From contig JBCBRU010000003.1 of the NCBI GenBank assembly GCA_039819565.1, positions 1 through 53,054 of the forward strand: a DNA stretch of 53,054 nt, read 5' to 3'. The DNA is from Myxococcota bacterium (GTDB lineage Bacteria > Myxococcota > Kuafuiibacteriia > Kuafuiibacteriales > Kuafuiibacteriaceae). A program made the position numbers and the translations under genes. Below, in pieces: positions 8,125 to 28,882 of the stretch. Below the pieces are notes generated by a model, which saw only the letters and a program-made list of their open reading frames with translations, was not told where the DNA came from and searched no databases. Positions within the stretch are counted from its first letter, which is position 1. Each line of letters opens with the position of its first letter.

Positions 8125-9747
8125 CTAGTAAAGGTCGGTGAACGAGACCTGAACGGACCGGAGGGTCCGGCCACCGGCCGCCACCGTGCTCCCGGTGGTC
8201 CTCTCGAGCTCCGAACCTCGGAAGTAGTACGGCCGGGCGACGAAGGTCTCGACGGTGTCCTCGGGGACCGCGAAGTATAGGGGCGCGCTTAGCCCCTCGA
8301 GGTGGCGACCGTGAAGATACATCACCAGAGCGTGCTCAGTGGAGTGATAGCCGTTTTTCCATTCGTTGCACTTGAAGGTGTCGTTGGGGGGCCCCTGGTA
8401 GACCGGCTGGCCTTGGGGCGTCAGGCCCGTGAAGACTTCGAAGTTCCACTGTCGATCGACGTAGGCGTCCAGCCAAGCCTGCCCCGAAGAGGCGAGGCGA
8501 TCGGTGTAGGCGCCGCTGGCTAGGTTGCGGGTGGCCGCCATCTGCTCGGCTTCGGCGTAGATCCACCAGTCTGAACCCCCCTCATTCTGGGTCGCGGAGG
8601 TGGGTCGCTTCATCCAACGTTGTCCGTCGTGGGCACGGGCGATCCAGGTGTCGACATGCTCGTCGAGCCACTGTTGAAAGGGATGATCGGAGAGCCGCTT
8701 GTCGACCTCCAGCAGCATCCAATAAGCCTTTAAGGTGTGGCCGAAGTCCACGTGGCGGGTCCGGTACTGGCCCTTCTTGGTGGAGACGCCCCAGAAGATC
8801 CCGTCCTGCCAGAAATGGCGAATCATCGCATCACTGAGCCGGCGAAGGTCGTCGAGGGCCTCGGCCCGGCGGCTCTCCTCGGAGAGGACAGGTTGCGCGA
8901 GCAGCAGGAACGCGTTGATCGCGTCCAGCTGGGCTACGAGTTCCCAACCCCCGTCCTGCTCCTGATCGACCTCGGAGAGGAGGTCCGGCGAGCGGCCATC
9001 GCGGATGCGCTCAGCGTCGGCGTCCCAGAAGGTGCTCGGGTCGAAGAGGAGGTCGCGCAAGGACAGGAGCGCCGCTTCCGCTTCGGGGTCTCGGGTCACG
9101 AAAAACCACGCGGCCATGCCGAGGGCGCAATACGCCGTATCCTGCGCATACTTCGGTCCCTCGAGCGCGGAGCCATCCTCACGGAGACGTTCGTGACAGC
9201 CGCCCCGGGGATCGACCGCGTGATCCAAGAGCCATCGCACCCCGAGCCCCGCTCGCTCGAGGAGGGCGGCCTCCCCGGTGAGGAGGTAGCCCATGGCGTA
9301 GGCATAGATCTGGCGCGAGATCATGCGGGGACGCCGCTCGCTCCGGCCGGCAGGGCGCCCCGAGCGCCCGCGGAAGGTGGGATAGTTGCCGGGCGGGGTC
9401 CCCAGAGCGTCGTCCTGCATCCAGAACGGACGGACGTCTTCGACCCAGTGGGTCTTCCAGCGATCTCCGGCGAGGACGTCGGGTACCGCTCCGGTGGCTG
9501 GGACGTGCGCGTAGCCTGAGGGGCCCGCGTCAGGAGAGCTTGCGTCGCCTGCTCCCGCGTCGGGGGCGGCCGCGTCGGCAGCGCCGGTATCTGCGACCCC
9601 GGCGTCGGAGTTCGGGTTGACCCCGGCGTCGAGGACCCCGCCCGCATCCGAGGGGGAAGGGGGAGCGTCGTCACCGCAGGCCGCGACCAGGGCCATGACG
9701 AGAACGAGTGAGAAGAGCACTGCGCGCCGAGAGGAGGTGAGGTTCAT
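8125..9747 (-). CDS. AGE/cellobiose-2-epimerase superfamily (alpha/alpha)6 protein, predicted lipoprotein with DAG-rich stalk
   Basis: Lipobox LVAAC; RMISRQIYAY, VDFGH, WWIYAE, WKNGYH motifs; ATG 9747 overlaps the malG stop. Confidence 0.7.
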   Translation of the reverse strand: MNLTSSRRAVLFSLVLVMALVAACGDDAPPSPSDAGGVLDAGVNPNSDAGVADTGAADAAAPDAGAGDASSPDAGPSGYAHVPATGAVPDVLAGDRWKTHWVEDVRPFWMQDDALGTPPGNYPTFRGRSGRPAGRSERRPRMISRQIYAYAMGYLLTGEAALLERAGLGVRWLLDHAVDPRGGCHERLREDGSALEGPKYAQDTAYCALGMAAWFFVTRDPEAEAALLSLRDLLFDPSTFWDADAERIRDGRSPDLLSEVDQEQDGGWELVAQLDAINAFLLLAQPVLSEESRRAEALDDLRRLSDAMIRHFWQDGIFWGVSTKKGQYRTRHVDFGHTLKAYWMLLEVDKRLSDHPFQQWLDEHVDTWIARAHDGQRWMKRPTSATQNEGGSDWWIYAEAEQMAATRNLASGAYTDRLASSGQAWLDAYVDRQWNFEVFTGLTPQGQPVYQGPPNDTFKCNEWKNGYHSTEHALVMYLHGRHLEGLSAPLYFAVPEDTVETFVARPYYFRGSELERTTGSTVAAGGRTLRSVQVSFTDLY

Positions 9748-10577
9748 CCTTTGACCCCTCCCGCCGTGAGGCCTCCCACCAGCTGCTTTTGCAGGGCGAA
9801 GAAGAGGATGACCACCGGGATGGACACGAGGATGGCCCCGGCCGAGAAGTACCCCCACTCGGTGCTGTGTGCTCCCACCATCTGCTTGAGACCCACCGGA
9901 AGGGTGTAACCTTCCTCCCGATTCATGAAGGTCGCGGCGAGGATGAACTCGTTCCAGGCCGTCATGAACGAGAAGAGCGCCGTCACCGCCACCGCCGGGA
10001 GACTCAAGGGGAGCATGATGCGCCAGAAGATCATGCCCCGAGTGGCCCCGTCCATCAGAGCTGCCTCTTCGAGGTCCTTGGGGATGGTGTCGAAATATCC
10101 TTTGAGCATCCACACGCAGAAGGGAATGGCGGTGGTCGCGTAGAGAAGCACCAGACCCGGCAGCATGTCGAGAAGCCCGAGTCCATCCATGATGTTATAG
10201 AGGGGCACCATCATCAAGACCCCGGGGAACATCTGCACGACCAGGAAGGCGATCATCCCCGTGCTGCGTCCCGGGAACTTGAAGCGGCTGAGCGCGTACG
10301 CGGCGGTGCAGGCCAGGAAAACGCCAAGCAAAGTGGTCGCGGCCGAAACCAGGATGCTGTTGATCCCCCACACCACGAAGGGGCGGTCCGTGAATAGATG
10401 AAAGAAGTTCCCGAAGCTGGGATTCTCGGGGAGGGGGTTCAGGCTGCTGTCGAAGCCCTGACTGGGCGAGAAGGCCATCTTGACGACCCACATCACCGGG
10501 AAGAGTGTGGCCAGACTGAAGAGGACCAGAAAGACGTTCTTGAGTACCCCGCCAAAGCGGGTTCTGTCCTGGGTCAT
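9744..10577 (-). CDS. malG: maltodextrin ABC transporter permease (MalG-like)
   Basis: AAYALSRFKFPG, LKGYFDTIPKDLEEAALMDGA (EAA loop), AWNEFILA. Confidence 0.9.
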   Translation of the reverse strand: MTQDRTRFGGVLKNVFLVLFSLATLFPVMWVVKMAFSPSQGFDSSLNPLPENPSFGNFFHLFTDRPFVVWGINSILVSAATTLLGVFLACTAAYALSRFKFPGRSTGMIAFLVVQMFPGVLMMVPLYNIMDGLGLLDMLPGLVLLYATTAIPFCVWMLKGYFDTIPKDLEEAALMDGATRGMIFWRIMLPLSLPAVAVTALFSFMTAWNEFILAATFMNREEGYTLPVGLKQMVGAHSTEWGYFSAGAILVSIPVVILFFALQKQLVGGLTAGGVKG

Positions 10578-27024: not shown

Positions 27025-27058
27025 CGTGAATCCTCCCCCCAAACTCTCTCGGTGGTGC

Positions 27059-28882
27059 TCACTCGCCGGGGCGAGTGAGGGCAATGACGACGGCGTCGGC
27101 TTCGTCCGCGGTGGTGCGGCTGAAGACGTAGGTGCTGCCGTCGTTGAAAAGGGCCCGGTGTGCTCCGCTGCCGACGGCCGGATGACGGTTTCGGAACTGA
27201 CCCAACCGCTGCCAGTGATCGAGGAGCGCGGTATCGAAGTCGTCCCAGTTCATGTCGGAGCGCGTTCCGGCGGTGCTGTCACCGTTGCCGTCGGCGGCCG
27301 GGCGGGCCGTCTCGTCCCCGTAGAAGATCTGAATTCCGCCCGGAAGCAACATCATGGCCGTGCCCACGTCGTACTGAAGCCCGAGGTCTCGTCCCGTCGT
27401 CTCGAAGAAGAGGGTGGTGTCATGGGACGAGATGTAGGTGAGGACGTTGAACTCGGGGTCCGAGTTCAGCGCGGAGGCGTACCCGGAATAGATGCTTTCG
27501 AGTCGGGCCGAATCGCGGCTCGCCTCGGCCGCGAGGGCCTTGAAGTCGAAGTTGATCAGGGAGTCGAAGCGCCCCTGGGTGTAGAAGTCGTCCTTGAGGA
27601 CCCCGTGCGGGAAGACCTCTCCGGTCATCCAGAACTCGAGGTCGTCCAAAGCCTCGGCGGGGTTGGCCGTCTTCCAGTCGCGGAGCGCCGCCGTCCCCGC
27701 CTGCTCGAGCTCTGCCCACGCTTCTAGTTCCACGTGCTTGGCGGTGTCGCAGCGGAATCCGTCGATCCCATACTCCCGGACCCAAGTGGTCAGCCACTCG
27801 ATCAAGTATTGGCGAACCGTAAAATCAGCTTGCATGACCGCCGCCGTGTCGGTTTTGGCGGCCAGGATCGGAGGGAGGCCGGTTGTCGATCGGAACTCCT
27901 CGGTCTTGAAGTCCGGAAGGAAGGCCAGAGACTGCTTGAGATCGTCGTTACCCGGTCCGTCGTAGCCAGGCAGGCCTGCCCGAATGAACTCTGGACCCCA
28001 CCAGTTTCGCCAGTCCGGATGGTTGAAGTCGATGAAGAGATCGTTGTAGCTGCTCCAGCTCTCCCCCGCGCCGGGGCGCCAAGTCTCCCAGCCGCTCGTC
28101 TTGAGGGCTGCCGGGAAGTAGGTGGCGATCTCGTTGAGGGAGGCATAGCCGGGGTGGTTCATGACCACGTCGAAGATGACGCGGATGCCGCGGGCGTGCG
28201 CCTCGCGCACCAGGGCTCGAAGGTCCTCCGGAGTTCCGAAGTTCGCGTCGAGACGGGTGAAGTCGAGGGCCCAATACCCGGCGTAGGCGAAATGGGGAAA
28301 GGCGCCGCCCCCGCCGCCCACGTATCCGTGGATCTGCTCGAAAGGAGCCGTGATCCACAGGGCGTTGGCTCCGACCGCGGCGATGTGGTCGAGCCGCGCG
28401 GTCAAGCCTTTCAGGTCTCCGCCGTGGAAGGTCCCGGTGTCCGGCATCCCGGTGAAGTCTCTCCCGTAGCCGTTGTCGTTGCTGGCGTCTCCGTTTTCGA
28501 AGCGGTCGATGAAGGCGAAGTAGACGGTGGCGTTGTCCCAAGTGAAGGGAGGGGACCTCATCTCGTCGCCCTGGCGCTCGATGAGGATGACGCCTTGGTC
28601 ACCCGGGAGGAACTCTACGTTGCCCGTCGCATCCACGGTCGCGCTGGCCCCCGTATAGGCGTCGCGCACCGACGTCCCGGGTGAAAACACGGAGGAGACG
28701 TCGATGCGCACCGCGGGCGGCCCGGCGTCCGGAGATGTTCCGGTGTCGGGGACGGACGCGTCGGGGGTGACGCCGCCGTCAGGCGTGGGGGGGCCTGCGT
28801 CGGTCGGGCTGCTGCTGTCGTCACCGCAGCCCAGCGTGGTGCCCACGAGGGTAGCTGCGACGAGAAGGATGCTTCGATTCAC
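27059..28882 (-). CDS. MalS-like GH13 alpha-amylase lipoprotein
   Basis: GGAGG RBS + GTG; TLGC lipobox; TWDNATVYF, GGDLKG, DVVMNH, GFRCDTAKH, MTGEVF, ISSHDT, GTRSDMNW. Confidence 0.9.
   Translation of the reverse strand: MNRSILLVAATLVGTTLGCGDDSSSPTDAGPPTPDGGVTPDASVPDTGTSPDAGPPAVRIDVSSVFSPGTSVRDAYTGASATVDATGNVEFLPGDQGVILIERQGDEMRSPPFTWDNATVYFAFIDRFENGDASNDNGYGRDFTGMPDTGTFHGGDLKGLTARLDHIAAVGANALWITAPFEQIHGYVGGGGGAFPHFAYAGYWALDFTRLDANFGTPEDLRALVREAHARGIRVIFDVVMNHPGYASLNEIATYFPAALKTSGWETWRPGAGESWSSYNDLFIDFNHPDWRNWWGPEFIRAGLPGYDGPGNDDLKQSLAFLPDFKTEEFRSTTGLPPILAAKTDTAAVMQADFTVRQYLIEWLTTWVREYGIDGFRCDTAKHVELEAWAELEQAGTAALRDWKTANPAEALDDLEFWMTGEVFPHGVLKDDFYTQGRFDSLINFDFKALAAEASRDSARLESIYSGYASALNSDPEFNVLTYISSHDTTLFFETTGRDLGLQYDVGTAMMLLPGGIQIFYGDETARPAADGNGDSTAGTRSDMNWDDFDTALLDHWQRLGQFRNRHPAVGSGAHRALFNDGSTYVFSRTTADEADAVVIALTRPGE

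Follow-up and report, generated by a model that had tools for sequence, protein, structure and literature searches.

How do starch-type glycans pass the outer membrane when neither of the well-known entry systems is encoded beside the genes for their use? Their uptake across this membrane is understood mainly through LamB-type sugar porins and SusC/D-type TonB-dependent complexes. The question was raised by a stretch of 53,054 nucleotides from a Myxococcota bacterium (contig JBCBRU010000003.1 of assembly GCA_039819565.1; hereafter the window), in which positions 8125-28882 are occupied by 13 contiguous genes, all on the minus strand except for a single plus-strand gene. Their products are three GH13 lipoproteins, the importer components MalEFGK, two Glucodextran_C proteins (GDC1 and GDC2), two choice-of-anchor-X lipoproteins (CAX1 and CAX2), an AGE-like lipoprotein and a 672-aa beta-barrel. 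This gene content had been laid out in a note written from the DNA letters alone (the original prediction), and all of it was found in place, the AGE assignment being weak.

We consider it somewhat probable that this is a locus for the utilisation of alpha-glucan (starch, glycogen, pullulan), in which the outer-membrane step is carried by a GDC2-barrel-CAX2-CAX1-GDC1 module and not by LamB or SusC/D. The lipid-anchored GH13 enzymes (pullulanase, MalS-like and AmyA/SusG-like), assigned to their families by profile matches and to their location by presumption, would cut the polymer. The glucan chains would be held by CAX2, for which a CBM20-type fold was found, and probably by CAX1 as a second lipoprotein of this type. 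The oligosaccharides would then cross the outer membrane through a plugless barrel of ~22 strands, with its conserved long loops as a constriction. GDC2, a Glucodextran_C/DOMON-like protein, would serve as a cap or as a receiving domain, seated at the barrel's periplasmic rim; both the complex and its side are predicted, and gene fusions support the pairing. Finally, the chains would be handed to MalE for import through MalFGK2, components that are recognisable by family. We infer both the passage of sugar through the barrel and the affinity of the Glucodextran_C domains for alpha-glucan.

The barrel and its family

The barrel gene (18665-20683, minus strand) encodes 672 residues with a type-I signal peptide and a C-terminus ending in EVGW, the last residue being aromatic, and its family is without annotation. 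No Pfam match was found at E ≤ 0.01 and no NCBIfam match. Relaxing the Pfam search to E ≤ 10 over 38 members of the family gave nothing consistent (DUF2490 in nine of the 38, Porin_4 in four and OmpA_membrane in one), and a PDB sequence-profile search returned 0 matches at E ≤ 10. An AlphaFold model built from the 38-sequence alignment (mean predicted local distance difference test, pLDDT, 70.8; predicted template modelling score 0.72) showed a barrel spanning residues 31-671 with ~22 strands, as counted from the strand list, and no N-terminal plug. The first modelled strand begins at residue 31, directly behind the signal peptide, and the strands alternate short turns of 2-7 residues with long loops of up to 55 residues.

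Searches with the model, by Foldseek and independently by VIA, gave flat lists of unrelated barrels only. The VIA Z scores were 13.7 for MtrB, 12.9 for FyuA, 12.7 for FimD, 12.5 for BtuB and 12.3 for maltoporin, falling to 9.8 at rank 50, so that the values of 12-13 for the TonB-type proteins FyuA and BtuB tie with those of ushers, porins and MtrB. A relationship to the LamB sugar porins was rejected: PF02264 matched none of the 38 members at E ≤ 10 and was absent from the whole, 95%-complete genome, with a positive E. coli control. The same holds for TonB-dependent receptors and SusC, as neither PF07715 nor PF00593 matched the barrel or any of the 37 related sequences; of the 31 matches to PF00593 in the genome, none is on the contig of the window. 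No TonB_dep_Rec, Plug, SusD or LamB domain was found in any scanned open reading frame (ORF) of the locus or its flanks. Hidden Markov model (HMM), PDB profile and fold searches thus agree that the barrel is a homologue of neither LamB nor a TonB-dependent receptor, as the original prediction required.

In a protein atlas, the nearest named clusters to the barrel were those of DUF6029 (feature score 0.95, TM 0.57-0.61). Membership in DUF6029 (PF19494), a Wzi-like family, was also rejected, as no member of the barrel family matched its model. The genome's own PF19494 match is another gene, lying inside a 634-aa ORF on contig C207 (locus L034, 973-2877, plus strand) and having no HMM relation to the barrel.

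The distribution of conserved positions was uneven. The long loops carry 97 of the 145 invariant residues, and mean conservation reaches 0.82-0.89 in loops L1, L3, L7 and L8 compared with 0.68 in the strands. Such loop-centred conservation is unusual for an outer-membrane protein, and its concentration in the long loops suggests that these form a structured constriction or binding platform.

A word-indexed search yielded 617 barrel homologues at E ≤ 1e-3 among 8000 candidates scored, and those with a named organism belong to Myxococcota, Deltaproteobacteria or Bradymonadia. Among the 120 homologue clusters listed, no Pfam domain was seen except PF09985 in four fused forms. An HMM scan of 1.84 billion cluster representatives gave 208 matches at E ≤ 1e-3, many of them fragments; this small number points to a compact family rather than to an outlying branch of a large known one. 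Eight close homologues looked up by cluster carried only 'hypothetical protein' as a name. One paralogous barrel (L030, 6987-10805, plus strand; genome G009, contig C24) was seen to form the C-terminal half of a 1272-aa ORF, whose N-terminal ~620 residues are without a Pfam match and whose gene adjoins a TPR-TonB receptor.

No description of the barrel or the module was found in the published article texts searched, and those of PMC5010890 and PMC12093494 contain no occurrence of outer membrane, porin, maltose/maltodextrin, transporter, SusC or TonB. Within that literature, this glycan-utilisation locus with its outer-membrane component is without earlier description; the assumption that it had not been characterised before was borne out to that extent.

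Putative partner proteins of the barrel

GDC2 (20704-21585, minus strand) is a Glucodextran_C lipoprotein encoded next to the barrel and its predicted partner. GDC1 (14780-15958, minus strand) is a secreted protein of the same family with a ~100-aa C-terminal extension and no lipobox. Both belong clearly to PF09985, with 128.8 bits for GDC1 (E 3e-37) and 186.6 bits for GDC2 (E 6.3e-55) against a gathering cut-off of 22. The only solved protein matched by the GDC2 profile was glucodextranase (1ug9/1ulv, residues 779-1000, E 1.2e-22). According to Pfam, Glucodextran_C is an SLH-like binding module of cell-wall type. Among 14 control genomes, PF09985 was found in Thermus thermophilus only, and the window's genome holds two more copies inside larger ORFs of 907 and 791 aa (contigs C44 and C38).

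Orthologues of GDC2 are lipoproteins in the window's family and carry ordinary type-I signal peptides in distant lineages; the lipid anchor is therefore dispensable. At three of 71 loci (L042, L062 and L070), GDC2, a linker and the barrel were found in one reading frame. These fusions carry a type-I signal peptide on the GDC part and have, in place of the signal peptide of the barrel, an A/P-rich linker. Of the 120 listed homologue clusters, four are likewise fused, with lengths of 944-956 aa and an N-terminal PF09985 domain, and one of them (P0033) is 63% identical to both GDC2 and the barrel of the window.

For prediction of the complex, residues 27-672 of the barrel and 38-293 of GDC2 were used, with one alignment per protein. 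Three runs gave interface scores (ipSAE) of 0.64, 0.58 and 0.67, and none of the three controls scored above 0.00. In a benchmark, 116 of 157 solved complexes and 2 of 215 mismatched pairs attained such a score, counts that hold here only roughly because self-made alignments were used. Agreement of contacts among the runs was at least 81%, and the partner pLDDT was at least 84. The pairing of the barrel with a lipoprotein of the locus, for which a multimer check had been proposed, is thus supported for GDC2 at the level of the model.

The barrel residues predicted to touch GDC2 are 34-36 and 671-672, together with turns at 83-84, 142-144, 241-244, 296-304, 366-376, 448-455, 529-539, 584-590 and 628-635. 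The contacts fall on the residues that immediately follow the signal peptide, on the final two of the chain and on almost all of the short turns, and several of the contacting turns are conserved (T2 0.84, T6 0.72, T10 0.99). Since the short turns and the two ends of the chain point into the periplasm in canonical outer-membrane barrels, we predict that GDC2 caps the mouth on that side. A periplasmic cap agrees with the position of the GDC domain N-terminal to strand 1 in the fusions and with the soluble, periplasmic-type orthologues of distant lineages. GDC2 would accordingly sit on the periplasmic rim of the barrel and not on the cell surface. The original prediction had spoken of surface lipoproteins; for GDC2, the contact residues, the N-terminal fusions and the non-lipidated orthologues point the other way.

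More tentatively, barrel and GDC2 may constitute a two-piece gated glycan transporter, whose DOMON-like gate or plug is encoded separately or fused N-terminally and docks from the periplasm. We regard this as a possibility rather than an expectation. If it were true, the pair would represent an independent invention of the plug-and-barrel principle known from TonB-dependent transporters and LptDE, pulling alpha-glucan towards MalE, and would constitute a new outer-membrane glycan-import family for Myxococcota.

On the other side of the barrel gene lies CAX2 (17172-18671, minus strand), a lipoprotein with the lipobox VGGC and a C-terminal domain of CBM20 fold at ~residues 285-430 (AlphaFold model, pLDDT 76.3). 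No Pfam match, CBM_20 included, was found for CAX2 at E ≤ 0.01, and the assignment comes from the fold. VIA aligned the domain with the CBM20 of 2z0b at Z 8.9 (rmsd 2.6, 103 of 111 residues aligned, 24% identity) and with the maltotetraose-bound CBM20 of STBD1, 8x8k, at Z 8.4 (97 of 97 aligned). The top 16 VIA rows for residues 285-430 were all starch-binding modules or enzymes containing them, and nearly all Foldseek matches were CBM20 domains. The lipobox cysteine is invariant in 14 of 14 aligned sequences. A motif WPGNQ, similar in appearance to the 'WE.G.N' motif of CBM20, is invariant too. We infer from the modelled fold that CAX2 binds starch.

CAX1 (16040-17131, minus strand; lipobox LLVAC) combines a linker of repetitive T/P/D/M sequence with the choice-of-anchor-X motif; in CAX2, this motif lies inside the CBM20-fold domain. 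Against the 25-bit cut-off of choice_anch_X, the two scores were 30.8 bits (1.8e-7, CAX1), which is above, and 22.1 bits (9.4e-5), which is below. An hhalign comparison of CAX1 with the CAX2 profile gave a match only in the region of the motif DDGTNGD (probability 82.7), and a PDB sequence search gave none for CAX1. The N-terminal third of CAX1 behind the lipobox consists of short peptide repeats of the TPPVDMG and ATEMDMG types.

Gene neighbourhood and competing explanations

The barrel was present in 19 of 41 related genomes, its own genome included. Of 20 regions extracted, 16 have GDC2 next to the barrel and 13 have CAX2 there. A pattern scan using one genome per GTDB species yielded 79 distinct loci, 11 of which coincide with loci of the 20-region set. 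All 79 come from metagenome-assembled genomes, and no cultured carrier was therefore identified. At 69 of the 72 loci that could be evaluated, the gene immediately upstream of the barrel, in the same orientation, is GDC2; immediately downstream, CAX2 was found at 56 of 69. Among the 42 loci flanked by 8 kb or more on both sides, a GH13 homologue is present in 29 and two or more of MalEFGK in 24. The order GDC2-barrel-CAX2-CAX1-GDC1 is kept across families beside GH13/Mal genes, even where the Mal operon is inverted, GDC1 retaining its slot after CAX1 in those cases too. The strong synteny of the accessory genes across Myxococcota, for which the original prediction had asked, was thereby found. 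At locus L096, the gene after CAX2 (13660-14352, plus strand) encodes a 230-aa protein with Pfam matches to CBM_20 (3.8e-6) and to pullulanase X25, and provides an independent link of the module to starch binding.

Several points weigh against the assignment of the outer-membrane step to this module. The barrel model is only moderate in quality, with a pLDDT below 50 in the very loops that are conserved. The membrane side of GDC2 follows from canonical barrel topology and not from model coordinates, and the A/P-rich fusion linkers, at ~35-45 residues, would in principle be long enough to pass through the barrel. That Glucodextran_C binds carbohydrate is an assumption taken over from the description of its family, and any of the 31 TonB-receptor matches elsewhere in the genome could import maltodextrins. 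As regards gene context, 13 of the 42 well-flanked loci are without a GH13 homologue within ~10 kb. At L084 and L092, the GDC2-barrel pair follows dnaK-dnaJ among unrelated genes, with no glycan genes within ~10 kb, and paralogous barrels of ~40% identity stand beside Ser/Thr kinases and TPR-TonB receptors. At L094 (4778-14367), a barrel homologue without GDC2 lies near an ABC-2 exporter, DUF4185 proteins and a GH99-like protein, a context that may hint at other glycans for the barrel family.

These contexts bear most directly on the view that barrel and GDC2 form a general outer-membrane complex, either a housekeeping porin or an envelope-structural pair, which some lineages recruited to a place beside alpha-glucan genes without its having a specific part in the passage of glucan. 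The occurrence of the pair without glycan genes, and of paralogues in other contexts, makes such a general role in the envelope possible, and the SLH-like, cell-wall-type description of Glucodextran_C would fit it. However, the CBM20-fold CAX2 follows the barrel at most loci, several of them without GH13/Mal genes nearby (L068, L072, L088 and L089), and the five-gene module remains intact beside GH13/Mal genes across families. We therefore consider a purely general complex unlikely. As to the claim of an alpha-glucan capture locus, the GH13/Mal content speaks for it here, but the barrel-GDC2 pair is not exclusive to alpha-glucan loci.

A barrel with a periplasmic cap might also be an export device, serving the surface placement of the locus lipoproteins or the export of a polymer. 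Secretion pairs of a periplasmic lipoprotein and a barrel are known in PelC-PelB, AlgK-AlgE and CsgE-CsgG, and the predicted position of GDC2 on the periplasmic rim would be in line with them. Moreover, the seven lipoproteins would need a surface route if they act on polymeric starch. For DUF6029, the atlas neighbour of the barrel, a polysaccharide-secretion role is suggested in PMC9603273, but its HMM misses the barrel and picks up a different gene. The fold searches, in addition, revealed no standout homology to a known secretion barrel, the layout with its 4-base gene overlaps suggests co-transcription with the importer genes malEFGK, and the orphan pairs have no lipoprotein cargo genes nearby. 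Export is thus a quite improbable function of the pair.

Least probable of all is that an ordinary MalEFGK and amylase cluster relies on a TonB-dependent receptor encoded elsewhere, after the model of Caulobacter MalA, with the barrel module only tethering starch: the 31 PF00593 matches in the genome and the nature of CBM20 and DOMON-like domains as binding modules, not channels, speak for it, but no TonB-receptor match lies on the window's contig, and a mere anchor would hardly be expected to take the form of a 22-strand barrel that stands beside binding proteins in 69 of 72 loci and has been fused to one of these.

Enzymes, importer and relation to known systems

The remaining genes of the locus provide the context for the module. 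Conserved syntenic homologues exist for all 13 genes. The window has a G+C content of ~65%, and 11 of the 13 reading frames passed a third-position GC filter (GC3 0.77-0.84 versus ~0.65 overall); the AGE-like, MalG and GH13c frames as listed did not pass it, because upstream ORF extensions dilute the signal. Seven lipobox-like signals had been claimed, and seven such N-termini were identified in the translations: LVAAC in the AGE-like protein, LLVAC in CAX1, VGGC in CAX2, STPAC in GDC2, SLVAC in GH13c, ASAC in PulA and TLGC in the MalS-like protein. They were read by eye, and the PulA start at MSIWTK was picked likewise.

From GDC2 to the AGE-like gene, ten genes follow one another with gaps of at most 81 bases or with overlaps of a few bases, 4-base overlaps among them. 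This arrangement suggests two transcription units, the ten genes from GDC2 to the AGE-like gene and a second minus-strand unit of the MalS-like gene and PulA. A promoter and terminator scan of positions 7900-27800 was without a signal, with 0 promoter-like sites versus 2.3 expected and 7 terminator-like sites versus 10.1 expected, and no RNA data set was among the nine sequencing runs containing the stretch. Near-identical DNA (word shares 0.80-0.97) was observed in runs labelled marine metagenome and microbial-mat metagenome, one of which may be the source sample.

Three GH13 lipoproteins are encoded. PulA (23464-27024, minus strand) is a pullulanase-type alpha-1,6-glucosidase (TIGR02103, 1177.8 bits against a cut-off of 697.6) with the Pfam modules Pullul_strch_C, PUD, Pullulanase_N2 and CBM_48. 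The MalS-like alpha-amylase (27059-28882, minus strand) matched Pfam Alpha-amylase (1.3e-37) and NCBIfam PRK09505 (1.1e-195) at 651.6 bits, which is below the equivalog cut-off of 790. The alpha-amylase-type protein GH13c (21771-23453; Pfam Alpha-amylase, 3.3e-90) is the product of the lone plus-strand gene, divergent from GDC2; its closest solved relative is AmyA (1wza, 4.6e-95), and SusG (3k8k, 6.7e-68) was also matched.

The importer genes lie together on the minus strand. They encode a MalE-type periplasmic maltodextrin-binding protein (13587-14783; SBP_bac_1, 1.6e-42), a MalK-type ATPase of 355 aa (12517-13584; ABC_tran 2e-32, OB_MalK 1.2e-10, TOBE_2 1.8e-9), a MalF-type permease of 648 aa (10574-12520; BPD_transp_1, 3.4e-20 at residues 441-635) and a MalG-type permease of 277 aa (9744-10577; BPD_transp_1, 2.4e-23), whose orthologues in synteny are 70-81% identical. 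A substrate-binding protein, two BPD_transp_1 permeases and an ATPase with MalK-type OB/TOBE domains thus stand in one operon, as expected of a maltose/maltodextrin ABC importer. The substrate is assigned from this context, because MalE reaches 163.7 bits with the NCBIfam MalE model (5.8e-48), below the 291-bit equivalog cut-off. MalF has an N-terminal extension of ~340 aa before the permease core, with a weak sCache_3_2 match at residues 33-116 (4.2e-5, below the cut-off). The extension is kept in orthologues of the same family, more distant loci aligning only from ~residue 350, and may serve as a domain for sensing or docking.

At the end of the operon lies the gene for the AGE-superfamily-like lipoprotein of 540 aa with a long D/A/G/P linker (8125-9747, minus strand), homologues of which adjoin MalG in other loci as well. 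No Pfam match was found; the NCBIfam AGE match (E 8.5e-4) is far below the cut-off, and cellobiose 2-epimerase 5zig was matched at E 1.9e-6 over residues 104-471. By these matches, the protein is only weakly assignable to AGE and is perhaps a cellobiose-2-epimerase-like (alpha/alpha)6 lipoprotein. Long D/A/G/P-rich tethers behind the lipid-anchor cysteine were noted in the AGE-like, PulA and MalS-like lipoproteins alike.

The locus end is directly abutted by a DDE transposase ORF (7384-8106, plus strand; DDE_Tnp_1, 2.9e-17). Immediately beyond the other end lies a polysaccharide-synthesis/export cluster (29019-36455) with a Wzx-type flippase, an epimerase, a GT2 glycosyltransferase and an OPX Poly_export/SLBB protein at 35847-36455.

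If the module is indeed responsible for the outer-membrane step, a major phylum, most of it uncultured, relies on an unrelated family of barrels that come with partner proteins of their own, which would amount to a new structural solution for long sugar chains crossing the outer membrane. The GDC2-barrel-CAX2 triad could then serve as a genomic marker of alpha-glucan use in metagenome-assembled genomes of Myxococcota. A likely role would also be given to two annotation orphans, the stand-alone Glucodextran_C proteins and the choice-of-anchor-X motif. To call it a third architecture besides LamB and SusC/D, as had been done, undercounts the known routes, since Caulobacter MalA (a TonB-dependent receptor), CymA and OprB are further outer-membrane routes.

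Compared with the enterobacterial LamB-MalEFGK system, the locus is alike in combining MalEFGK, periplasmic or lipoprotein amylases (MalS-like, PulA) and a passive-looking, plugless barrel. It differs in the lack of a LamB HMM match in barrel or genome and in the dedicated partner proteins of the module. Maltoporin is an 18-strand barrel, with a chain of 421 residues in 1mpr, whereas ~22 strands were modelled for the 672-aa barrel described here (at the model pLDDT of 70.8), and in fold this barrel matches maltoporin (Z 12.3) no more closely than it does unrelated barrels.

With the Sus system of Bacteroides and polysaccharide utilisation loci in general, the locus shares lipid-anchored GH13 enzymes (GH13c being related to SusG), starch-binding lipoproteins (CAX2 corresponding in concept to SusE/F), a large barrel and an inner-membrane importer. 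In contrast to Sus, there is no SusC, as judged from the absence of Plug and TonB_dep_Rec matches, and no SusD in the scanned ORFs of the locus and its flanks. The partner of the barrel is a Glucodextran_C domain predicted at the periplasmic rim instead of an extracellular lid, and the inner-membrane step is that of an ABC importer.

TonB-dependent transporters and LptD-LptE, the latter a plug-and-barrel pair, resemble the barrel and GDC2 in barrel size (22 modelled strands) and in having a globular domain that is fused N-terminally or docked periplasmically. However, analysis of the barrel of this locus revealed no Plug domain, no TonB box and no kinship in sequence, and its docking domain is a DOMON-like beta-sandwich homologous to domain C of glucodextranase. 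That enzyme, from Arthrobacter globiformis (1ug9/1ulv), is homologous to GDC1 and GDC2 in its residues 779-1000; unlike in the enzyme, Glucodextran_C here comes without a GH15 catalytic domain, either as a stand-alone lipoprotein or secreted protein or fused to the barrel itself.

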